Shown: in pieces, positions 1,517 to 62,588 of the stretch
Position numbering within the stretch: the stretch's first letter is position 1
Layout: every line of letters begins with the position of its first letter
Virus record (IMG/VR): IMGVR_UViG_2884366220_000001
Coordinates: 1 to 64,000 of that record
Length of the DNA: 64,000 nucleotides
Reading direction: 5' to 3' (one strand)
Source of the DNA: a virus
Lineage: Duplodnaviria > Caudoviricetes
Position numbers and translations under genes: made by a program
The notes under the pieces: generated by a model
Told to the model about the DNA's origin: nothing
The model's database searches: none
What the model saw: only the letters and a program-made list of their open reading frames with translations

Positions 1517-1934
1517 TCGACCCGACATAAGCCTGCTGAACGTGTTGGAAACACCCGCCGAATGGCGCGAGTGGATCGAGGAAGACCCCAACGACGCCCC
1601 GGCCATATCGGATGAGTTGAGCGAGTTGATGATTGAGATTGTCAGCTGCCGTCGGTTCATTAATTGGCCGATCACAGGAGTCACTAAGGAGATGTACGCC
1701 CAGAGCCGCGAACTCAGCGAATACATTAAGGACCTGATGGCTCAAATCATTTCGCTCTGTAACGGCAAGGAAACTCGAGCAACGCTCGACGTCGACGATG
1801 GTTTCACCTGTACGATCAGAATCTACTACCACGAGAATGAAGAGTTTCCCGAATCATCGGCGTGGAACATCGACATCCAGTTTGCCCGTCGACTGAAACG
1901 AAAGGAGGTGCCCGATGCCCCTGATCAACGCTGA
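1482..1934 (+). CDS. Hypothetical phage protein (probable start ATG 1506)
   Basis: ORF overlapping both neighbours. Confidence 0.65.
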   Translation: MKTGRRAKMKNNRPDISLLNVLETPAEWREWIEEDPNDAPAISDELSELMIEIVSCRRFINWPITGVTKEMYAQSRELSEYIKDLMAQIISLCNGKETRATLDVDDGFTCTIRIYYHENEEFPESSAWNIDIQFARRLKRKEVPDAPDQR

Positions 1935-2256
1935 CTTTCTCCAAAAACTGCGCGAACAGGCTGACGTCGTGCAGATCATTGGGGAGTTCATCGACCTAAA
2001 AAAAACGGGTAGCACCTACAAAGCGTGCTGCCCGTTCCACGACGAAAAATCACCGTCGTTCACCGTCAGCCCGGTACGCCAGACCTATAAATGCTTCGGC
2101 TGTGGCAAGTCAGGCGACGCCCTCGATTTCATCATCTCCTACCGTAAGCTTTCCCTACCAGAAGCTGCTACCTACCTCGCCGGTAGACTCAACGAACTTG
2201 TCGAGTATGACACTGATAACCGACCCAAAAGCCGATTCGACGGAATCCAACTATGA
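1915..2256 (+). CDS. CHC2 zinc-finger domain (DnaG N-terminal zinc-binding domain), encoded in a separate frame
   Basis: CCPFHDEKSPSFTVSP...YKCFGCGKSGD motif. Confidence 0.9.
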   Translation: MPLINADFLQKLREQADVVQIIGEFIDLKKTGSTYKACCPFHDEKSPSFTVSPVRQTYKCFGCGKSGDALDFIISYRKLSLPEAATYLAGRLNELVEYDTDNRPKSRFDGIQL

Positions 2257-5200
2257 GACATTCACCGATTTATACAGCCTTAACGACCGTATTGCTGACA
2301 AATACCATCGTTACCTGACCGAAGAAATTCTGCCCGATGGGCTGCATCCCGTAAGCCAGTATCTGGCCGGCCGTGGCTACGGCCGTGAGCAGATCGACTA
2401 CTGGCAGATCGGGTTCGCCCCCGACCAGTGGCAGTTCGTAGCCGACAGCGTAATCAAGCTCGATGCGTTTGATCTGGCGGTTGATCTGGGCGTGTGCCGG
2501 AGCAAGGACGGCAGCCGGTACGACTTTTTCCGGAACCGGCTGATGATTCCGATTCGGGACGAGAAGAACCACATGCTGGGATTCACGGCCCGCTCGATCG
2601 GCCAGCAGACGACGCCGTCTGGCGAGAAGCTGCCCAAATACATCAACACCCCCGAAACCGTCATTTTCCGGAAAGAAGAAATTCTGTTCGGACTCAATAA
2701 AGCCCGTAAGGAAATTGAACGGTCGAAAATGGCCGTGCTAACCGAGGGGCAAACCGACGTGATAGCCCTGCATCGTGCCGGCATCACCAATGCCATCGGC
2801 AAACAGGGCTCGGCCCTGACTGAAAAGCAGATTGCCAAGCTGGCCAGCCTGTGTGAGTCGGTGACGCTGGTATACGACATCGATACGAACGGGACGGGCC
2901 AGAAGGCGCAGGCCCGCGATACGGAAGTACTGCTCAAGGCAGGGTTGCGCGTGAAGATCTTCTACCTGCCGCAGCCGGAGCAGGCCGAAGGAGAGGGGCC
3001 GGTAAAGGTCGACGCTGATTCATGGGTACAATCGCTGCTGCTCAGTGACGAACCCGCCGACGGGCCAGCGTGGTGCATCAAACTACGCGGCAAACTCGAC
3101 CTGAAAGCCCAGTTGAAGCGGGACAGCAAAGACGGTCTGATGGAACTGGCAGCTTCGCTGCTCGATCAGGAAGACATGGATGACGTTATCATCGGTCAGC
3201 GGCAGATCATCACGATGCTGAGTCGACTCGATGATTCGGTAGCGGACGCCTACGTTACCCGCATCGCCAAAGAGTTAGCCTGGAAAAAGAGTGTTATCAG
3301 CAAGCTGCTGGCTACAGCTAAAAAGAAGGGCGATAAAAAGGCAGGCAAGGATGATGACGACGATGACGACTTCCCGGAGTGGGTTGACCGGAAGGAGTTT
3401 TTTCAATGGCAGTTCGCGGAACGGTGCGACGCGCAGCAACCTCATAAGACAGGGTACTATTTCTCCGGAGTCAAAGGCATCAGTACCAATCCGCTGACCA
3501 ATTTCATTGCCAAACCGCTGTTTCTCATCAAGCAGCAGGGAGCCGTTCGGCGACTGGTGCAGCTGGACAATGGATACCGGAAGGTTTACGCCGAGTTCGA
3601 CGCCAAAGTACTGACCGGTGTCACGCAGTTCGAACAGGAGCTAAGCAATTTGGGCTACTTCACCATCGACGAAGATTTCGATAAGAAGCACCTGAAGCGG
3701 ATCATGAACAAGATCCTGGCGAATACCCCGGAGGTTTACCCGGTCAATACGCTGGGATGGCAACCCGAAGGATTCTTCGCATTCAGCAATGCCGTATTCA
3801 ATGGGCATCTGGAGAATTACAACGAGCACGGTGTCGTCGTCGTCAACGAAAAGCACTTTTTCAGCCCGGCCATGTCGCCCATCAGCGCCAACTACCGGCA
3901 GGAAGAGGACGGCTACAAACACGATCGATACCTGACGTTCCGGCCGTCGACGGTGACGTTCAACCAGTGGGGGAAGCAAATGCGCCGGGTGTACGGCGAT
4001 CGGGCAATGGTTGGGGTTACGTTTGTCATTGCTACGCTGTTCAAAGACATCGTCAAGAAGCTGGCAAAAATCCCTCTGATCTACTGCTACGGGCCGAAAG
4101 ACTCTGGTAAGTCGACCTACGCAGAATCGTTGCTGTACGTATTTTTTTCGGGTAAAGATTCCAACGGGGATCTGATGAAGCCCATGAACTTAGGGGCCGA
4201 ACCGACACTGGCGGCCTTCTGGACCGCACTGGCCCGGTTTCGCAACTGCCCGTTCGTGTTCAATGAATTTGATTCTACCCGCGTGGCGCCATTCGTGGCC
4301 ACAGCGTTTAAAGCCGCCTGGGATAACGAGGGCCGGAGCCGCCAGAGCCGGGACAACAAGTACCAGACCGAAGAGCAGTCCGTAAACTGTGCCCCAATTA
4401 TCGTCGGGCAGTACCTGGCCACCGGTGACGACGGAGCCGTGCTGAGCCGTAGTCTGATTTTCGAGTTCAAGAGCCGGAAGGATACGCCGTTTACCCCGGC
4501 CGAAAAAAATGACTACGGCCAGCTGCGGCAGTGGGAGCAGGCGGGGCTGAACGGGTTGCTCAGCGAACTGCTGCCCCTACGGGAAACGATGGAGAGCCGT
4601 TTTGGCGAATCCATCCGGGCCGTGCGGTCGGAACTGGCCGAGCGGCTGGAGCGTCAGGGTATTCCGTTTGAGAACCGGCCGCTCGAAAACATCATCTGCC
4701 TGCTGAGTATCTACGAAACGGTCAGTAAGTCGGTGTCCTTTCCGATGACCCGCGACGAGTTCTGGAACTACTGCTGTGAGCTGCTACGCGATATGGGTAG
4801 TCAGATCCACGACAGCGACGTGCTGACCGGTTTCTGGGGAATGCTGGAGTATCTGCTCGACCGGGGCGATATCGTCGACGGGTGGGATTTCAAGATCGAA
4901 ACCAGCACTTCGGCCAAACTCACCGGCGAGAACCGCAAAGCCGAAACGATCAGCTTCGACAAGCCGACGCGCGTGCTGTACCTGCGCATGAAAATGGTAC
5001 ACAAGCCCTATGCCGAGGCCATGCGCCGGCAGAGTAACGACAAGCCACAGAGCGAGCAGACACTGAGCACCTACGTCCGCCAGCAGAAGTATTACCTCGG
5101 TACCAACGAGAAAACTTACTTCTCGCAATCGGGTGGCGAATGGACGAACACCAGTGCCATTGTACTGAATTACGACCTGCTCAGCGACCGCACCGGCATG

Positions 5201-5599
5201 AGCCTGGAGCGATTCAAACAGTCGGACGAGGATACCCGGCAGGAAGTGACGGTGGAAGGCACCCTGAACCGTGACATCAAAGTGCTGAACGTCGGTACTG
5301 GTCAGCAGATCGAGTTCGTCCTCCAGGTTACGCAGACAATCAGCCAGGGAGGTACACCCCGCACTGAGCAGTTCAATGTCAAGTGCTTTGCCGCCCCCGA
5401 AGTGGTATCGGAAGAGAAACTGCGAACCGGTACCGTCTGGAAAGTGACCGGTCTGATGCAGGAAAAAAGCTGGAAAAAAGGTGCCGAAACATTCCACCAC
5501 CGTACGCTCGACGTGCTGAGCGCATCACAGGTCGATATGTCGGTACGCTACGCAACCGGGTACAAGCCCAGCGACGAAGAGAAGAATATGCCATTCTAA
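2207..5599 (+). CDS. DnaG-type primase (TOPRIM) + P-loop helicase-like domain + C-terminal SSB-like domain
   Basis: FRNRLMIPI, PKYINTPET, LTEGQTDV and YDID primase motifs; Walker A GPKDSGKS; OB-fold-like C-terminus ending DEEKNMPF. Confidence 0.88.
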   Translation: MTLITDPKADSTESNYETFTDLYSLNDRIADKYHRYLTEEILPDGLHPVSQYLAGRGYGREQIDYWQIGFAPDQWQFVADSVIKLDAFDLAVDLGVCRSKDGSRYDFFRNRLMIPIRDEKNHMLGFTARSIGQQTTPSGEKLPKYINTPETVIFRKEEILFGLNKARKEIERSKMAVLTEGQTDVIALHRAGITNAIGKQGSALTEKQIAKLASLCESVTLVYDIDTNGTGQKAQARDTEVLLKAGLRVKIFYLPQPEQAEGEGPVKVDADSWVQSLLLSDEPADGPAWCIKLRGKLDLKAQLKRDSKDGLMELAASLLDQEDMDDVIIGQRQIITMLSRLDDSVADAYVTRIAKELAWKKSVISKLLATAKKKGDKKAGKDDDDDDDFPEWVDRKEFFQWQFAERCDAQQPHKTGYYFSGVKGISTNPLTNFIAKPLFLIKQQGAVRRLVQLDNGYRKVYAEFDAKVLTGVTQFEQELSNLGYFTIDEDFDKKHLKRIMNKILANTPEVYPVNTLGWQPEGFFAFSNAVFNGHLENYNEHGVVVVNEKHFFSPAMSPISANYRQEEDGYKHDRYLTFRPSTVTFNQWGKQMRRVYGDRAMVGVTFVIATLFKDIVKKLAKIPLIYCYGPKDSGKSTYAESLLYVFFSGKDSNGDLMKPMNLGAEPTLAAFWTALARFRNCPFVFNEFDSTRVAPFVATAFKAAWDNEGRSRQSRDNKYQTEEQSVNCAPIIVGQYLATGDDGAVLSRSLIFEFKSRKDTPFTPAEKNDYGQLRQWEQAGLNGLLSELLPLRETMESRFGESIRAVRSELAERLERQGIPFENRPLENIICLLSIYETVSKSVSFPMTRDEFWNYCCELLRDMGSQIHDSDVLTGFWGMLEYLLDRGDIVDGWDFKIETSTSAKLTGENRKAETISFDKPTRVLYLRMKMVHKPYAEAMRRQSNDKPQSEQTLSTYVRQQKYYLGTNEKTYFSQSGGEWTNTSAIVLNYDLLSDRTGMSLERFKQSDEDTRQEVTVEGTLNRDIKVLNVGTGQQIEFVLQVTQTISQGGTPRTEQFNVKCFAAPEVVSEEKLRTGTVWKVTGLMQEKSWKKGAETFHHRTLDVLSASQVDMSVRYATGYKPSDEEKNMPF

Positions 5600-5613: not shown

Positions 5614-5907
5614 ATGATAACCGCCCAACAACTATGCTACTGTGATGTGCTGCTGACGCCAGGGGAAGCCGCCAAAGAGTCGGACGAGAAGCGAGGCTAC
5701 ATCGTGTCAAGCATCATTCAGATGCCCAAGCGAATCAACGACGGCTATCGCGAATACGTCGAATGGCAAATCGCCGGATTCTATCTACTCGAAAGCAAAA
5801 CGCTGACCCGCCGGGAAGTAACGCTCGAAGAGATGGAGCTGAGTCTGGCTGAAGGATCGCTGGTGCCTTACCTACCGCCCACGGTGCGCCAGGTTAAAAT
5901 GGGCTAA
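5614..5907 (+). CDS. Hypothetical phage protein
   Basis: ATG just after the primase stop. Confidence 0.6.
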   Translation: MITAQQLCYCDVLLTPGEAAKESDEKRGYIVSSIIQMPKRINDGYREYVEWQIAGFYLLESKTLTRREVTLEEMELSLAEGSLVPYLPPTVRQVKMG

Positions 5908-5935
5908 TCAATTCACCAAATCAATTCATTCTACG

Positions 5936-6064
5936 ATGTACAAGGAAACCTGTTGGTACTGCCCTCGACGCCCGTCGGCAACGCAGCGACTCGGCCACGT
6001 AACCGGTCTGATTCTCTATCCCTTCTGGAGCGCCTACCGCCGACTTCGTCAATTCAGCAACTAA
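5936..6064 (+). CDS. Small hypothetical protein (42 aa, MYKETCWYCPRR...)
   Basis: Translated by hand; AT-rich leader; fills an operon gap. Confidence 0.4.
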   Translation: MYKETCWYCPRRPSATQRLGHVTGLILYPFWSAYRRLRQFSN

Positions 6065-7053: not shown

Positions 7054-7395
7054 ATGGCGATGGACCGCAGCAGGTACCCCCGTGGCTGGCGCAGGATCAG
7101 CAACCGGTATCGATTCGAGGTGGCCAATGGCATTTGCGAGCAGTGTGGGGTAAAACACGGAACGGTATATCCGAAGGGGCCAGATCTGAAGTGTGCCTAC
7201 CCGGCAACCCGCATCGTCATTGTATTCCTGAACGCGGCCCATCGCTATCATAACACAGACAGCAGTGATGACGAAGATCTGATTGCTTTATGCCCGCGCT
7301 GCCATGCCAGATACGACATGGATGATATCCTGAGCAAGAAGGTGTACGGTATGAATCACGCGGGTCCCCAACAACTAAAACTATTCGACCAATGA
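7054..7395 (+). CDS. HNH-family endonuclease-like protein
   Basis: CEQCG...AAHRYHN...LIALCPRCH. Confidence 0.75.
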   Translation: MAMDRSRYPRGWRRISNRYRFEVANGICEQCGVKHGTVYPKGPDLKCAYPATRIVIVFLNAAHRYHNTDSSDDEDLIALCPRCHARYDMDDILSKKVYGMNHAGPQQLKLFDQ

Positions 7396-13353: not shown

Positions 13354-14016
13354 ATGCAACCTACGCTACTCGAACAACTGGCCGCCTGGCTTGACAACCG
13401 CGTCTACGACGTCGGGGTATTGCTGTATCAGCAGATCCACGGCGACGGGTTCATGCTGTCGATGCTGAAGGGCGGTGCCGACGACTATAACCGGAAGAAA
13501 CTCACCGACGCCCTACAGACTCATCACGATCAGCTGAGTGCGGCAGAAACCGCCCTGGTCGAAAGCTACCCCGAGTCGCTGACCGGTGATCTGGAGCGGG
13601 GTAAGATCCTGATGGATGAGCGTACTGCGCTGAAGGAGCGAATGCGGTACATGGCCGATCAGGGCATCACCAAAGGCGAAGACCTCAAACGCCTGGCGTA
13701 CCGGGTGCTGACCATCCGGGATGATCTCGGTACCATCTACGGCCGTAAGGAATTCTTCCGCCAGCATGGCTACATGCCAGACGCGCCGGCCGTCGACCCG
13801 GCCATCACGGAAGCCGCGCTGATGAAGCGGCTTTTGTCGGTTCGGACCTACATCAGCAAAGAAACCCGGCGGCTCGCGCAGCTGACCGCTGACGACCCGA
13901 AACGACCCAAATACGAGCAGAAACTACGGGCATTCACCAGTGAGGCCGAGCAGCTTAAGCAGCAGCTGGCAACGCTGACTAATAACCCATACGATAATGT
14001 CACTATTCTCGACTAG
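13354..14016 (+). CDS. Hypothetical helical phage protein
   Basis: ATG ORF heading the packaging operon. Confidence 0.7.
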   Translation: MQPTLLEQLAAWLDNRVYDVGVLLYQQIHGDGFMLSMLKGGADDYNRKKLTDALQTHHDQLSAAETALVESYPESLTGDLERGKILMDERTALKERMRYMADQGITKGEDLKRLAYRVLTIRDDLGTIYGRKEFFRQHGYMPDAPAVDPAITEAALMKRLLSVRTYISKETRRLAQLTADDPKRPKYEQKLRAFTSEAEQLKQQLATLTNNPYDNVTILD

Positions 14017-14608
14017 CGAGGCCCACGACTATGCCAAACCCCAACACGACAAAGCTGCCGTGTGCAGCAGTGTTGAGCAACATTCGAATACGCTCCTTGG
14101 TCGAGTTTCGGATGCTGTCGACGCAGTGTTCCCACCGCTCGAGCGGGGAAACACCTACCACTACGCCAGTGCCGGCCTGTGGAGCACGCACGACCTCCTG
14201 TTGCACATCCTGCGCCAGACCGGCCCGGCCCGGATCTGGATTGCCACCTGGTCAATGACCGAGGATGCCTGCCGCGTGCTCGTGCAGGGCATTCAGGAGG
14301 GTATCATTCAGGATCTGCGGCTACTCATCGACTCACGGGTAATTACTCGCAATGCGAGCGCCTATGCGTTTGTCTCTTCTCATGCCGAAAAGACTCGGAT
14401 TACCGCCTGTCACGCGAAAGTGACGGTGATCGAGAACGACGCCTGGGCTGTGTCGATGGTCGGCTCAGCAAACTACACGAATAACCCCCGGATCGAAGCC
14501 GGTGTGGTCACCGAGAGCCGCCCGGTTGCGGCTTTTCACCGCGACTGGATCGACCGCGAAATGGAGAAAGCCAAGCCTTTTGGCGAAACCCTCAAACTCT
14601 TACGATGA
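13997..14608 (+). CDS. Phospholipase D-superfamily (single HKD) nuclease-like protein
   Basis: CHAKVTVIEND...VGSANYT motif. Confidence 0.8.
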   Translation: MSLFSTSEAHDYAKPQHDKAAVCSSVEQHSNTLLGRVSDAVDAVFPPLERGNTYHYASAGLWSTHDLLLHILRQTGPARIWIATWSMTEDACRVLVQGIQEGIIQDLRLLIDSRVITRNASAYAFVSSHAEKTRITACHAKVTVIENDAWAVSMVGSANYTNNPRIEAGVVTESRPVAAFHRDWIDREMEKAKPFGETLKLLR

Positions 14609-17869: not shown

Positions 17870-18778
17870 ATGGAAGGTACAAAACGCGACCACTTCGCAG
17901 AGGTCACCGGGAAAATTATTGCCCAATTGGAACAGGGTATCGTACCGTGGCATCAGCCGTGGGGCTTCTGCGAACCCGCACAAAATCACTTCACCGGCCA
18001 CCGCTACCGCGGTATCAATTCGCTACTGATGCTGATGGAGGACTATAAAACGCCCTACTTCGCGACCATCAAGCAGATTAACGAAGCCGGTGGGCGCGTC
18101 AAGAAGGGAAGCAAATCGACACAGGTTTATTTTCACGACTGTATTTACAAGGACAAAAACGGCGCACGGCTAACCCCCGACGTTGCTTTACCCCGCATCA
18201 AAGCCGGTGATTCGACCGTCAGAAAGTACCCGTTTATTCGCCTGTTTCCGGTGTTTAATATGGATTCGGTGGAAGGGTGCCCCGTTAAGTCAGCCATACG
18301 CCGGAGCGAAACCGATAACCACGAGATAGCGGTCTGTGCGGACTTCGTTACCGCCCTGAATTTGGGCAACCAGTTGCGCCACGCCAACGTTGACGAAGCC
18401 TTTTTTCACAAAAAGGATGATTACGTGCAGATGCCCCCGCTGGACGTGTTCCGCAGTTCGGAATTGTACTACGGTGTTTTGTTCCACGAGCTGACCCACT
18501 GGACGGGACACGCCGACCGGTTGAATCGAAAGACGTTGACCGAAGCCCTGAAATTTGGCGACACCAATTACTCACTGGAAGAACTGACCGCCGAACTCGG
18601 CAGTACGTTTCTGTGCAATACGTTCGGTATTGATACGCCCGACACCCTACAGAACCAAGCCGCCTACATTGCCAACTGGCTGGGCGTGCTCAAAAAGAAC
18701 AGCCGCTTTATCTGGGATGCCGCCAGCGACGCACAGGCCGCATTTACGTACCTGATCGACCGCGCAGGTACTTATTAG
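17870..18778 (+). CDS. ardC: ArdC-family anti-restriction protein (ssDNA-binding + zincin-like domain)
   Basis: PWHQPW, YRGINSLLL, FHELTHWTGH, YSLEELTAE and AAYIANWL motifs. Confidence 0.9.
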   Translation: MEGTKRDHFAEVTGKIIAQLEQGIVPWHQPWGFCEPAQNHFTGHRYRGINSLLMLMEDYKTPYFATIKQINEAGGRVKKGSKSTQVYFHDCIYKDKNGARLTPDVALPRIKAGDSTVRKYPFIRLFPVFNMDSVEGCPVKSAIRRSETDNHEIAVCADFVTALNLGNQLRHANVDEAFFHKKDDYVQMPPLDVFRSSELYYGVLFHELTHWTGHADRLNRKTLTEALKFGDTNYSLEELTAELGSTFLCNTFGIDTPDTLQNQAAYIANWLGVLKKNSRFIWDAASDAQAAFTYLIDRAGTY

Positions 18779-58017: not shown

Positions 58018-58581
58018 ATGCTTTTTGGCTACGCGCGGGTATCGAGTGCGGATCAGAACCTCGATGTACAAATTGACACGCTGACCAGAGCGGGATGTGA
58101 CCAGATCTTTCAGGAAAAGATCAGTGGGGTCGTCATTGACCGGCCCCAGCTTGGCAAGCTACGCGCAGTGCTGCGGCCGGGTGATACAGTCGTCGTTACC
58201 CACCTCGATAGGCTGGGTCGTGATGCGATGCACATGATGCAACTAGTCAGCGACTGGGCCAAGCAGGGCATTCAGTTTCGTTCGCTGGATCTGGGTATTG
58301 ACACAAAGACACTTAGCGGAAACCTAGTATTGCAAGTATTCGCGGTACTGGCTGAGTACAACCGGAATCTCATCAAGGAAAAGCAGCGAGCTGGCCAAGT
58401 ACTAGCTAAAGAGCAGGGTAAGCACATGGGACGCCCGCCTGGTGTTGATGAAGAAAACTATCAAAAAGTAAAAATGGCTTACCAGAAGAAATTATCTATA
58501 AACGAGACTGTTGCCTTAACTGGAGTCAGTCTGTCGAGCGTAAAGCGTTATAGGAAAATAATCGAATCAGGAGAAGTTTGA
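58018..58581 (+). CDS. Small serine recombinase (resolvase/invertase)
   Basis: GYARVSS, LDRLGR, GRPP and C-terminal HTH. Confidence 0.93.
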   Translation: MLFGYARVSSADQNLDVQIDTLTRAGCDQIFQEKISGVVIDRPQLGKLRAVLRPGDTVVVTHLDRLGRDAMHMMQLVSDWAKQGIQFRSLDLGIDTKTLSGNLVLQVFAVLAEYNRNLIKEKQRAGQVLAKEQGKHMGRPPGVDEENYQKVKMAYQKKLSINETVALTGVSLSSVKRYRKIIESGEV

Positions 58582-58652
58582 CTATATAAACAGTACTAGT
58601 TGTTTTAGTGAATTTCAATCGATTTTATAATACTTCAGCTAAGTAAATAATC

Positions 58653-60338
58653 ATGAAAGTTTCTGTAACTGATCCTTCTAAAGCCTTTCAGCATCACATT
58701 GATAATCCAGAAAATCAACATATTCTTTTTTCAGGTGCTTTTGGCTTTGGGAAATCATATTTTCTAAACGATTTCTTTAGCCGTAATGAGGACAGCTATT
58801 CTGCTTTCTTTATATCACCAGTCAAATATGCAGTAGGGTATAATGAAGATATATTTGACTATATAAAAATAGATGTTGCTTCCGCTTTAATAGCAAGTGG
58901 AAAACTGCCGATAAACGTTCCTAAACACTTTTCAGAAAGCGAATACTTGAGTTTCTTTATTCGGGAAAATGCAAGCGAAATTTTAAATATTTTATACGAA
59001 TCTTTAAAGGATGATAAAGCTGAGAAGATAAAAAAAATTATAGATTCCGTGTCAAAGGTTTTAGATTTCAAAGAGAAATACAACAAGTGGAAAGATACAA
59101 TACGAAAAGCTGATAAAAATTTGATTGACAGCCTGAGTGATGTAAGCAAGCAATACCTTGTTCGTAAGGGATCTATTTATGAGGATGATATACTAACACA
59201 ATTGATCAGGGGTTCTGTAGAAAAAATTAGGAACGAAACTTCTACAAAAACTGTGTTAGTTATTGACGATTTCGATAGGCTAGATCCTGAACACATATTT
59301 CGTATTCTTAATATATTTAGTGTTCATAATAATTATTATGATCAAGAAAATAAATTTGGATTTGATAGAATTATAATTGTGTGCAGTCTGCTGAACATAC
59401 AGAGAATATACGAATATAAATATGGAACAGAGGTTGATTTTAATGGGTACATTGAGAAATTTTATTCAACAGACGTATTTTATTTTCATAACCAGAAAGC
59501 TATATCTGAATTCTGTTCAAGCGAGTTCAGTGCAGACCTAGACGAATATTCTCAGTATTTATTGAGTTATGTTCTCTCCTATTTTGTTGAAAAGGATATA
59601 ATTTCTATTCGTAGTATTATAAAGCATTCTAGGACGTTTTTCTTTACGCCCTTCACCCAAAAATTTGTATTAAATGAAAATTTTAGTGAAGTTAAGAATG
59701 AACAAACAACGTTAGTTCCTCCTGTTGATCATAGGTATGGATATACAGAACATTGGCATGAAAAAGTGTGGAGCGAAGATTTTATTGCCCCTTATAGAGC
59801 AGAGATAAGCACATTTTCTGTCTCCAGCGACGATTTGCCCATTCTTAAAATTTTGAAGATTCTGGTTACAATTTTCGGGGATTATAATAATTTGCTTGAG
59901 GTTGTATCCAGAAACAGAGAGGATAAGTCATTGATACATTTTGATAAAACTATTATATTAATAAAGTCTCTGGCAATATCATGGTATGTCTTTCAAAATT
60001 TTAGTATACCGGAAAATATTATTATTGAAAAGAGACCATTTCCTTATAGTAGAAACGGCAATCGCACATATCAAAGATTCGGTAAGCCAGTTATTAATTT
60101 TAATGGAATGTTTGAAACGAAAATTCCATTAAAATGGGATCAGACAAATCAATATGATGGTGAGGCAAGTCTTTTTCAAGGAATTGACTACGATAACTGG
60201 GAGATAGTTTATCCTATCAGAGATCCGCAGTCATTTACCACTGGAACATTAATGGATATGATGAGAGACACCTTATTGCAAATTGAGAGGTGTGGACAAC
60301 TTCCTTTATTAGGAATAACTAAAAATAGAAAACTCTAG
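58653..60338 (+). CDS. KAP-family P-loop NTPase with unknown C-terminal domain
   Basis: SGAFGFGKS Walker A; VLVIDDFDRLDP Walker B; GYIEKF; very AT-rich. Confidence 0.8.
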   Translation: MKVSVTDPSKAFQHHIDNPENQHILFSGAFGFGKSYFLNDFFSRNEDSYSAFFISPVKYAVGYNEDIFDYIKIDVASALIASGKLPINVPKHFSESEYLSFFIRENASEILNILYESLKDDKAEKIKKIIDSVSKVLDFKEKYNKWKDTIRKADKNLIDSLSDVSKQYLVRKGSIYEDDILTQLIRGSVEKIRNETSTKTVLVIDDFDRLDPEHIFRILNIFSVHNNYYDQENKFGFDRIIIVCSLLNIQRIYEYKYGTEVDFNGYIEKFYSTDVFYFHNQKAISEFCSSEFSADLDEYSQYLLSYVLSYFVEKDIISIRSIIKHSRTFFFTPFTQKFVLNENFSEVKNEQTTLVPPVDHRYGYTEHWHEKVWSEDFIAPYRAEISTFSVSSDDLPILKILKILVTIFGDYNNLLEVVSRNREDKSLIHFDKTIILIKSLAISWYVFQNFSIPENIIIEKRPFPYSRNGNRTYQRFGKPVINFNGMFETKIPLKWDQTNQYDGEASLFQGIDYDNWEIVYPIRDPQSFTTGTLMDMMRDTLLQIERCGQLPLLGITKNRKL

Positions 60339-61615
60339 AACCGAGGAAATCTATGAATCTTGTCATCGTTGACCATACGAACCCCAAGGTCACGTAGATA
60401 CTCGATGGTTTGCTTGATGTCGGTGTGCCTAGCCTGCTGCCGGATTAGTTCTATATCCTTCGTAGCATTCCATAGTGCAATGGCCCCGGTATGTTTCCAG
60501 GAATACATATCGTGGCCTGAACCAACCATACCGAGCTTTTCAATTACCTGCTGATGCCGGCGGTAGAAGAATTTGGGACCAACGCAGACCGGCCCCGGCT
60601 CGCCTGAAGTGGTGAACACATAGTAGTGACCTGGATACTCGCGGATGCGCTGCTGCTGAATCAGTTCTTCGAGGGGTAGGGGAATGTTAACAAAGCCGCC
60701 GTCGTTGGTTTTGGCTGATTCACCCGTCACGTAGATCATGTGCGTTCGCACGTCGCGCACCCGCAGGAGCCGCAACTCCTCGTGGGGCCGCATGAGCGTA
60801 TAGTACAGCCACCGGTTGAAAGTTAGCAAGTAGTCCAGTCCCAGGTCTTCGCATACCTGCCGGTACTCAGCTTGTTGCCGTTCGGAATACGCCTGGTGCT
60901 TATTGCTGACCTGCGGCAGCTTCTTGATGCTTTTATCCTCGAAGGGATTCCCCGCTTTGCCCAGCTTCTTGGAGCGGTCCAGCCCGATCCAGTGATTAAA
61001 GAAGGTTCCTATGTAGCCTTTGCGGTTATTGCGTGAACGGTTGTTGACGCCCACCACCGTAATCAACTCGTGCAAAAACTCGATAGCGCCGGCCGAACTG
61101 AACTGCGCCAGCGTCGCCTGGGGCCGGTGGTGCCGCTCCAAATAGGCTAGCAGATCCATTACGGCCGTGCGGTAGGATTTGAATGTGTTCCTGGCGTGTA
61201 CTTTCTTACAGTACGCCAGGTATTCAGGGACAGCCTTCTCTATGGGGATCGAACCGGCATCGTTCAGATTAAGAACGGGCGGCTCGGGGCGGGGGCGGGC
61301 CGTTTGTTTTGGCTTGGTACCGACGTAGGCTTTTCCCCCTTTCAGGTAGTTGGTCAGTTCCGCGATGATATCCGTCGCAACCCGGTGCCGCTCGGCGACC
61401 GAGTAGCCCGTTACGATCACCCGCTTTCGGACCAGCTTGTTTTTATCGAACGAAAAGACCGAGTAGGTTACGCACCACTGACCGGTCAGGTTCTCGTCGG
61501 CGGGCCTGCTCAGATAGGGAAGCTTGTAGGGGTAATTGCCAGGCTCTAAATCGGTATTCACGGTTTTGTCCAACTTATTTTGCCACGGATTTGCCACGGC
61601 GTCGATTTTTGCCAC
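60335..61615 (-). CDS. int: Prophage tyrosine integrase (true start possibly GTG 61561)
   Basis: TLMRPHEE (R), AKT (K), YSWKHT, ARHTD and IEYL catalytic pattern. Confidence 0.88.
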   Translation of the reverse strand: MAKIDAVANPWQNKLDKTVNTDLEPGNYPYKLPYLSRPADENLTGQWCVTYSVFSFDKNKLVRKRVIVTGYSVAERHRVATDIIAELTNYLKGGKAYVGTKPKQTARPRPEPPVLNLNDAGSIPIEKAVPEYLAYCKKVHARNTFKSYRTAVMDLLAYLERHHRPQATLAQFSSAGAIEFLHELITVVGVNNRSRNNRKGYIGTFFNHWIGLDRSKKLGKAGNPFEDKSIKKLPQVSNKHQAYSERQQAEYRQVCEDLGLDYLLTFNRWLYYTLMRPHEELRLLRVRDVRTHMIYVTGESAKTNDGGFVNIPLPLEELIQQQRIREYPGHYYVFTTSGEPGPVCVGPKFFYRRHQQVIEKLGMVGSGHDMYSWKHTGAIALWNATKDIELIRQQARHTDIKQTIEYLRDLGVRMVNDDKIHRFPRF

Positions 61616-61859: not shown

Positions 61860-62462
61860 TTAATGCGGTATAGCTCCAAGTTTCCTATTATAGTGCTTTA
61901 AAAAGAGCTTTGCTTCTCTAGTAGTTGTATCTATAATATCTCTCTGAAATAAGTCTCGGAAAACATAATATAACGCTGAGTGATTGGCATAAAGAATATC
62001 ATAGACCTGCATTAATTCGCTGTTAGTAAATGTTCTGTAAAACATTATATATATTTCATTCTCATCTTCAATGTGTTCTGTGCCTATCCCGGCATTCTCC
62101 CCGATATTATTAATAGTGTCAATAAAAGTGCTGTAAGTTAAAGCAAGCTTACGCTTCAGAGTTTCTATATATTCTTGAGCAATAAGAACGGTCGGTGTAG
62201 GGTCTTGAGTTTTCTCTCCTAAGTCGCCGTTACTAGTTTCTTTCGGGTTCTCATTGCTTTGTATCCCCCCCCAAGTAATCAGCTCAACAACTGAAACGCG
62301 TAAGGCCTTAGATATTCTCTCTAAGTTATTGAATGTCAATTGATTGCCTCGGTTTTCAAGTCGTGGGTAATTAGTTGCTTCTATACCCAGCTCCTTGGCC
62401 ATCATTGTAGGCGTGATACCTCTCGCCTTACGTATAGCTTTGATGTTGCTAGCAATGTCCAT
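61860..62462 (-). CDS. XRE-family HTH repressor
   Basis: IKAIRKARGITPTMMAKELGIEATNYPRLEN. Confidence 0.85.
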   Translation of the reverse strand: MDIASNIKAIRKARGITPTMMAKELGIEATNYPRLENRGNQLTFNNLERISKALRVSVVELITWGGIQSNENPKETSNGDLGEKTQDPTPTVLIAQEYIETLKRKLALTYSTFIDTINNIGENAGIGTEHIEDENEIYIMFYRTFTNSELMQVYDILYANHSALYYVFRDLFQRDIIDTTTREAKLFLKHYNRKLGAIPH

Positions 62463-62588
62463 AATCACTATTAGATAGCGCAATACTCATCATTAGTGGT
62501 AAAATAATCATAATCGAACTTGCATAATCAAGAATCAATAGTCGATATTTGAGAGTCGTTTAATGACTACAATAATCATATATTGACT

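Follow-up and report, generated by a model that had tools for sequence, protein, structure and literature searches.

The 64,000-nucleotide stretch of viral DNA analysed here (Caudoviricetes; positions 1 to 64,000 of IMG/VR record IMGVR_UViG_2884366220_000001; "the window" below means this whole stretch) includes a temperate, siphovirus-like prophage of roughly 50 kb, whose host is a Bacteroidota bacterium of Cytophagales type. Within it, one long open reading frame (ORF) encodes a primase-helicase that carries at its C-terminus a predicted oligonucleotide/oligosaccharide-binding (OB) fold of the type found in SSB (single-stranded DNA-binding protein), followed by a flexible tail ending in Met-Pro-Phe (Table 1). 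Translation gave 1130 residues with no internal stop. The open frame extends upstream to a GTG at 2102 at its longest, and the start was placed at the Met encoded at 2207, which is shared by nine full-length homologues of 44-95% identity. An earlier note on this DNA, made from the sequence alone, had described a primase, a P-loop helicase and an SSB-type OB domain joined in one ORF, and this description holds for the single stop-free frame, the translation of which contains all four peptides then quoted (EVTVEGTLNRD, EQFNVKCF, LRTGTVWKVTGLMQEKSW and DEEKNMPF). Position 5237, where the SSB-like part had been placed, is codon 1011, and in our model the first OB strand (residues 1012-1020) begins one residue later.

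Searches with the main ORF returned 210 homologous proteins at E <= 0.001, the best 120 of which were used for per-protein counts, and alignment-based searches located 80 genome and 67 viral loci related to it; single-sequence searches of both contig sets gave none. The survey of homologues for the fusion, suggested earlier, was positive: 25 distinct related loci, and a protein 95% identical to this one, also carry the fusion as an uninterrupted ORF. A sequencing or assembly artefact can therefore be ruled out as the source of the fusion. The whole-chain model, based on a 53-sequence alignment, had a mean predicted local distance difference test score (pLDDT) of 86.2 and a predicted template-modelling score of 0.50, with low-confidence stretches at residues 282-294, 378-386, 1004-1009 and from 1112 onward, and was compared with 48,161 PDB representatives using VIA-align.

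We called the OB fold SSB-type because of its AlphaFold model, its structural matches, a profile-profile match and a profile search that reached canonical SSBs. Specifically, the model of residues 1001-1130 had a mean pLDDT of 88.3, rising to about 95 in the core, and showed six long strands, in agreement with the expectation that structure prediction would find an OB fold in the last ~120 residues. Foldseek searches of the PDB with this model gave bacterial SSB and PriB structures throughout the ranks listed, the best being Streptomyces SsbB (4dam; E 3.4e-8, template-modelling scores 0.61/0.72), and VIA-align of residues 1003-1115 placed SSB and PriB structures at Z 10-12.8. When a profile of 22 distinct homologous C-terminal domains was run against PDB sequences, SSBs ranked first (1se8, E 2e-4; 7d8j, 2.9e-4; 7r4w, 3e-4); SSBs made up 26 of the 36 matches listed, and the other 10 were G3BP1 and CD47 chains, all at E >0.6. 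Aligned by hhalign with a profile of 17 SSBs from the Cytophagales, the order of the host, the same profile gave a probability of 94.3% and an E value of 9.8e-8 over 82 columns. In a library of 1.84 billion representative proteins it found 349 at E <= 0.001, with the C-termini of long helicase or primase-helicase proteins leading (11 of at least 1100 amino acids and 12 of 813-921 amino acids in the top 150), SSB-sized proteins next, and canonical SSBs reached at E 2e-8 to 7e-5. A Pfam scan of 39 of these library matches assigned all 23 proteins of 128-276 amino acids (E values in the range 3e-9 to 5e-5) to the SSB family PF00436 above its cut-off; one match was a PAN-repeat false positive, and the 13 closest had no Pfam family.

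The conserved positions of the 22 aligned domains also fit an SSB-like DNA face, with G1082 retained in all 22, an aromatic residue at F1037 and at F1061 in 19 each, and R1099 in 17; hhalign pairs F1061 and W1089 with W58 and W86 of the host SSB. Further elements shared with bacterial SSBs are the G-x-L...D start, a TE motif, an L-x-x-G-x-x-V-x-V-x-G strand and a Trp after the long hairpin. Three results weigh against this assignment. The direct Pfam score against PF00436 stayed below the cut-off of 26 bits (14.3 bits for the whole protein and 19.1 bits, E 0.0014, for the last 140 amino acids), so that the HMM (hidden Markov model) check named in the earlier note failed in its direct form and succeeded with family-profile methods. 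In addition, the column of host SSB W52, a DNA-stacking position, is occupied by a gap or by Q1055 in the OB alignment, and W1089 is aromatic in only 7/22 family members. Because of these last two points, classic SSB-style wrapping of DNA is not assured. Profiles and the model together identify the C-terminal domain as a diverged SSB-superfamily member, one that Pfam's curated model overlooks, and because Pfam misses it, annotation pipelines label the entire chain "toprim domain-containing protein" or "DNA primase". It differs from bacterial SSBs in being the C-terminal domain of a 1130-residue enzyme, whereas SSB is a free protein of 110-180 amino acids, and in a shorter linker to the tip, of about 22 residues where the host SSB has about 60.

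Two further observations concern this domain. C1060 (window 5384-5386, in a K-C-F just before the conserved aromatic) is kept in 18/22 OB domains; at this position the canonical Cytophagales SSBs carry Leu or Val. Four library proteins of 122-184 amino acids (P0137, P0142, P0145 and P0147) comprise either the final segment of the helicase or the OB fold alone, together with the F tip, and P0137 begins with MERF exactly at the domain boundary; these may have been truncated at contig ends, or the module may also occur as a protein of its own.

In the model, residues 393-1002 form a beta-rich N domain, an AAA+ core, a helical domain and a C-terminal helix-plus-strand domain. VIA-align matched this region to SCCmec Cch (5dgk_B; Z 22.7, 469 positions aligned, root-mean-square deviation 5.4) and SaPIbov1 Rep (8tch_B; Z 21.0, 459 aligned), with MCM AAA+ cores at Z 13-15, while the T7 gp4 and Twinkle structures aligned to the primase part only (residues ~10-357). 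On the basis of these matches, the modelled helicase is of the Cch/Rep, MCM-like kind. G629, G634 and K635 of the Walker A motif and E687 of the second NTPase motif (Walker B; NEFD, residues 686-689) were invariant in 53/53 aligned sequences, and S636 and D689 also in 18/18. Like the present protein, Cch and the SaPI Reps are encoded by mobile elements and combine initiator with helicase, but identity to them is 10-11%, they lack a DnaG primase, an OB fold and a Phe tip, and the SaPI5 primase is of the archaeo-eukaryotic type. Passages of PMC9371898 describe SaPI Reps as self-loading initiator-helicases with an origin-binding C-terminal winged helix, those assayed unwinding 3'-5'. The helicase described here probably also recognises and melts the phage origin.

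Phage P4 alpha had been offered as a parallel. The architecture is analogous, but homology of the helicase part is not demonstrable: Pfam, PHROG and structure searches of the main protein gave no match to alpha (a weak Pfam match was to PPV_E1_C, E 0.12), and the closest structures are Cch and SaPIbov1 Rep. Passages of PMC4889955 describe P4 alpha as a single chain with a DnaG-type primase, a helicase and a C-terminal origin-binding winged helix, and place it in the D5/superfamily 3 group. P4 alpha relies on host polymerase and carries no SSB domain. T7 gp4 likewise has a DnaG-type primase N-terminal to a ring helicase and, according to passages of PMC12593628, a flexible C-terminal tail that contacts the polymerase; however, its helicase is of the RecA-type superfamily 4, it has no OB domain, and T7 has its own polymerase and a separate SSB.

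A search 3' of the main ORF for origin iterons gave only weak short repeats (5906-6060) and no AT-rich dip. A 97-codon ORF starts 15 nucleotides past the primase-helicase stop and fills part of what had seemed a gap. In the 175-nucleotide gap beyond it, AATCAATTCA occurs twice (5906 and 5919) and TCAATTCA once (6049). Such repeats might serve in regulation or at the origin, although the signal is weak.

The N-terminal part of the protein was labelled DNA primase by PHROGs and NCBIfam, and Pfam located DNAG_N at residues 48-167 (E 1.6e-28) and Toprim_2 at 177-256 (E 7.3e-11). Residues 10-372 matched four DnaG RNA-polymerase domains in VIA-align (5guj, Z 31.6; 2au3, 30.3; 5w33, 29.1; 1dd9, 28.0), the first of which, 5guj_A from Bacillus subtilis, aligned over 315 positions with a root-mean-square deviation of 4.3; E180, D224 and D226 of the Toprim region were invariant in 53/53 sequences. 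The CHC2 zinc-binding domain, however, is absent from the 1130-residue chain. It lies on a separate 113-residue ORF in another frame, so that the primase of the "single-chain replisome hub" pictured in the earlier note is in fact divided between two ORFs. The TIGR01391 dnaG model is shared out accordingly, with model positions 2-101 on the upstream ORF and 101-338 on the main ORF. With respect to the zinc-finger ORF, the main ORF is read in the +1 frame, and its ATG lies 50 nucleotides before the zinc-finger stop (overlap 2207-2256). The same split in the same relative frame was found in Spirosoma panaciterrae (L001), a Cytophagales metagenome-assembled genome (L002) and Arsenicibacter rosenii (L003, the same locus as viral contig L081), whereas the zinc finger is fused to the primase in more distant relatives and the split falls instead between primase and helicase in other lineages (e.g. 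L011-L015, L085, L091, L092, L105, L107 and L126). A frameshift error was ruled out, as three independent relatives share the +1 overlap even though their DNA at the junction differs (mean column identity 68%). Because the last 14 residues of the zinc-finger ORF are conserved as protein across four genomes (with one Ser encoded by AGC vs TCC) and no convincing +1 slippery site was found at the junction, we favour two overlapping genes over programmed +1 frameshifting, which would join the zinc-finger ORF to the main chain.

Table 1. Features of the primase-helicase gene, its surroundings and the SSB genes mentioned in the text. Positions are those of the window unless a contig is named.
Feature	Position	Strand	Basis or remark
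DnaG CHC2 zinc-binding domain, separate 113-residue ORF	1915..2256	+	PF01807 (Zn_ribbon_DnaG), E 9.5e-34
Main ORF: primase core, helicase-initiator, OB fold, tail	2207..5599	+	1130 codons + stop
DnaG-type RNA-polymerase domain (N-subdomain, Toprim, helical subdomain), residues ~17-372	2255..3322	+	Pfam, VIA-align
Charged, acidic low-confidence linker KKKGDKKAGKDDDDDDDF, residues ~378-394	3338..3388	+	pLDDT <50 at 378-386
Cch/SaPI-Rep-like helicase-initiator (by model), residues 393-1002	3383..5212	+	VIA-align
Walker A GPKDSGKST, residues 629-637	4091..4117	+	Conservation
Predicted SSB-type OB fold, residues 1012-1108	5240..5530	+	AlphaFold, Foldseek, VIA-align, hhalign
Low-confidence tail, 22 residues ending ...PSDEEKNMPF	5531..5596	+	pLDDT 58-60 (C-terminal model), 50-51 (whole chain)
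97-codon ORF, ATG start	5614..5907	+	
HNH endonuclease	7054..7395	+	phrog_1571, E 9.2e-14
PLD-like endonuclease	13997..14608	+	phrog_16945, E 3.1e-19
ArdC-like protein	17870..18778	+	ArdcN, E 1.7e-24; zincin MPTase-PolyVal, E 2.1e-36
Serine recombinase/invertase	58018..58581		
KAP-family P-loop protein	58653..60338		
Tyrosine integrase	60335..61615	-	
Helix-turn-helix repressor-like gene	61860..62483	-	
cI-like repressor	L149:16305-16640	-	1.7 kb upstream of the window
LRR-Roc-COR protein (bacterial ROCO GTPase), 1047 residues	L149:12840-15983	-	Just outside the left end of the prophage
Host SSB, 177 residues	L148:1492-2022		Ends GGDDDLPF
Canonical SSB, 174 residues, in an Arsenicibacter prophage relative	L003:10204-10725 (= L081:6426-6947)		Ends DDNDLPF

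The Phe-terminated tail, which had been taken as a feature of the SSB fusion, turned out to belong to the whole family, with or without the OB domain. F1130 was invariant in 18/18 aligned homologues, and all ten members of the window protein's sub-clade end in F. Among the best 120 of the 210 homologues, 95 end in Phe, 38 of these in Pro-Phe; the loci gave 122 distinct proteins extending to the helicase C-terminus, of which 90 have a terminal F and 74 a terminal PF, compared with 45 and 9, respectively, of 858 other ORFs of the same loci. Pooling the listed homologues and locus proteins gave 219 distinct family C-termini, of which 162 end in F and 13 in Y (175 in F, Y or W). The 162 F-tails have Pro at -2 in 107 cases, Leu or Phe at -3 in 52 and 27, and Asp or Glu at -4 in 90, and the family consensus is Q-x-[DE]-[LF]-P-F. 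In members without the OB domain, 75/97 end in F and 67 in PF.

In a FastTree phylogeny of the helicase core (125 rows after identical rows were merged and fragments covering <500 profile positions dropped; midpoint root), all 25 OB-bearing rows fell inside one clade of 36 with a local support of 100. The OB label required at least 3 changes on the tree, a number as low as which occurred in 0/500 shuffles, and F-tails, requiring 18 changes, were found on both sides of the midpoint root. Because the OB domain is confined to one clade and the F-tails are not, the tail looks older than the OB domain, which would have been added later in one clade, as judged from a quick, midpoint-rooted tree with several long branches.

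The acidic ...PF tail of SSB docks replication and repair partners. An [LI]PF ending is present in 21 of 24 SSB-family proteins taken from 21 related genomes, the three others being short paralogues, and many tails of the helicase family (DDLPF, DELPF, EDLPF) are identical to SSB tips. We found that the prophage has no DNA polymerase among the ORFs scanned, and that the whole host genome (99.86% complete) has a single PF00436 match, the host SSB. The prophage must therefore use parts of the host replisome.

We consider it probable, though well short of certain, that the protein is a self-loading primase-helicase that holds displaced single-stranded DNA (ssDNA) and attaches to a partner in the host replisome. 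What the analysis shows is the architecture, with its fold, homology and distribution; the binding of ssDNA, the assembly of a ring, the recognition of the origin and the docking of a partner are inferred. One polypeptide would combine the DnaG-type primase core, the Cch/SaPI-Rep-like AAA+ helicase, the divergent SSB-family OB domain and the Met-Pro-Phe tail, with the zinc-binding domain of the primase supplied by the small overlapping upstream ORF. The helicase ring would assemble at the phage origin and unwind DNA, and the tethered OB domains, one per subunit, would catch the displaced single strand beside the primase. The hydrophobic tip would plug into a pocket of a host replisome or repair protein as the host SSB does with its tip DDDLPF or T7 gp4 with its tail, and this docking would couple the phage fork to host synthesis, the phage itself encoding no polymerase. 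The T7 gp4 tail ends in Phe and shares its site with the tail of the gp2.5 SSB. Passages of PMC12593628 report that the acidic tails of gp4 bind basic patches of gp5 and that removal of the tail lowers processivity. In evolutionary terms, the tip would be ancestral to the helicase family, and the later gain of an OB domain in one clade would have recreated an "SSB on a helicase".

Several observations weigh against this scheme. In the tip of the window protein, EEKNMPF, K and N take the place of the D-D of SSB tips, and the last 8 residues hold three acidic residues and one basic; of the "intact SSB-like acidic tail" of the earlier note, the flexible tail ending in PF stands, but DEEKNMPF is only loosely like the host tip. 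Tails of the OB clade are less regular (15/25 end in F and 7 in PF) than those outside it, and 52 of the 162 F-tails have Q at -6, which is not a feature of SSB tips. As to the polymerase-associated partners that had been proposed, the classic one, the chi subunit of DNA polymerase III (Pol III), was not found: a search of the host genome for PF04364 scored 6 candidates and gave 0 matches, which excludes the textbook link from SSB to the clamp loader as what the tail targets. In addition, an Arsenicibacter prophage relative (L003/L081) carries a canonical SSB gene about 900 nucleotides downstream of a primase-helicase that also bears the fused OB domain, which argues against the fused domain being simply a replacement for SSB. 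This was the sole locus pair with an SSB among the 147 loci, and no SSB, as a possible source of the fusion, was found beside OB-less relatives in flanks of up to 6 kb by an HMM that was seeded with the host SSB and would miss divergent SSBs.

The family consensus is also open to a second explanation, which we consider unlikely, namely that the tip is a peptide binding the beta sliding clamp, by which the helicase would tether the host clamp and thereby Pol III, the OB domain being an independent add-on for handling ssDNA. Beta-clamp-binding hexapeptides are of the QLxLxL type, e.g. QVELEF of Pol III alpha, and the pattern Q(-6)-x-[DE]-[LF](-3)-P-F(-1) resembles them, with Q-x-x-hydrophobic-x-F present in 49 of the 162 F-tails. 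Some clades lack any acidic residue (GQSSLPF, QSNFNF), and the absence of chi from the host also suits a clamp. Moreover, 6/57 non-F C-termini retain [LF]PF followed by one or two extra residues (SLPFN, FPFQ, ELPFG, LPFDT, QLPFG and FPWEQKS), from which it follows that a free carboxylate is not always needed. However, [DE]-hydrophobic-P-F is about as common as the Q pattern (50/162, with 19 tails having both), and Q at -6 is absent in the window protein and its nine closest relatives. Characteristic of SSB tips are Pro at -2 (107/162), an acidic residue at -4 (90/162) and the strict C-terminal placement (175/219 with F, Y or W as the last residue).

It seems less probable still that the OB domain and tail act mainly within the protein and have no host partner, the OB domain being PriB-like or a sensor of the origin or of ssDNA by which loading or primase activity is regulated, and the tail being an autoinhibitory element that folds back on the OB domain or the helicase. 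The tails of SSB and T7 gp2.5 do fold back on their own OB folds and compete with ssDNA, the short linker noted above would suit such an arrangement, and PriB structures score as well as SSBs (1v1q and 2ccz, E 7e-7 to 1e-6 in Foldseek; Z 10-12 in VIA-align). The Arsenicibacter relative, with its separate SSB beside the fused OB domain, points the same way. However, because the tail is found in 75/97 members without an OB domain, that domain cannot be its primary target, and the prophage needs the host polymerase with no other candidate adaptor seen. Finally, the substrate in a study of ClpXP in Streptococcus mutans is said to be an SSB tail ending in LPF. A terminal LPF or MPF that serves as a degradation tag limiting the replication protein, e.g. 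via a ClpXP motif such as that reported for S. mutans (PMC5143411), is very improbable here, as there is no evidence for it in Bacteroidota and it leaves unexplained both the acidic/Q context and the place of the motif on a replisome protein, where it resembles the T7 gp4 tail.

It is possible, though we would not call it probable, that all the elements belong together: a widespread family of Bacteroidota phage helicases would bear a C-terminal copy of the docking peptide by which host proteins find SSB (or the clamp), and one clade would have captured an SSB OB domain, the zinc finger there being a separate, overlapping gene acting in trans.

The prophage is laid out in the order cI-like repressor, small ORFs, zinc-finger ORF, primase-helicase, HNH endonuclease, S49 prohead protease and ArdC-like protein, then portal-like protein, endolysin, tail genes and, with its end near 48.1 kb, a tape-measure protein, after which host histidine-kinase genes follow. 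Isolated or curated relatives share this layout, the giant "DNA primase" being their only annotated replication gene. For example, in Cellulophaga phage Ingeline, the best isolated-phage relative (all 50 features covered), the primase ends in ...AIEHL and has neither the OB domain nor the F tip, and in Porphyromonas phage 019b (first 20 kb covered) it ends in ...KKEESEEIF. The ArdC-like protein lies inside the prophage; proteins of this type are usual on conjugative plasmids as anti-restriction proteins and bind ssDNA. The PLD-like and HNH endonucleases sit in the early and packaging regions of the prophage. Past the prophage there is a second mobile-looking cluster (58018-61615) with a serine recombinase/invertase, a KAP-family P-loop protein and a tyrosine integrase; a helix-turn-helix repressor-like gene and, on the other side of the prophage, a bacterial ROCO GTPase gene were also observed (Table 1).

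A literature search, in which subscription journals were mostly uncovered, provisionally gave no described primase-helicase with a fused SSB domain and no SSB-tip-like peptide on a helicase of the Cch/Rep type. The nearest published idea found is the polymerase-SSB primase pair of SCCmec-like elements (Rice 2023): PMC10061031 describes CcPol-MP as a mobile-element primase that relies on a small SSB-like OB partner to bind ssDNA, but that partner is a separate protein bound to an A-family polymerase domain, whereas in the window protein the OB domain shares one chain with a DnaG-type primase-helicase, at its helicase end. The modules are known; their combination, which we did not find described, together with the family-wide tail offers a testable route by which a phage may capture the host replisome.

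Outside T7 and lambda, little is known about how a temperate phage that encodes only a primase-helicase engages the polymerase of its host. The present family offers a testable handle on this question, namely the conserved Phe tip of the helicase, to which one clade adds a tethered SSB domain, and could reveal how phages of Bacteroidota, including relatives in gut Bacteroidales and among Porphyromonas phages, exploit the pockets that receive SSB tips or clamp-binding peptides. It is also a natural experiment on the effect of a covalently tethered SSB on a helicase, and the split zinc-binding domain is a natural test of primase function in trans. If the combined reading is correct, a ring helicase with one SSB module per subunit would coat its own displaced strand and take over the host SSB interactome at phage forks, forming a minimal two-gene replisome organiser and a natural case of SSB-hub hijacking by mimicry.

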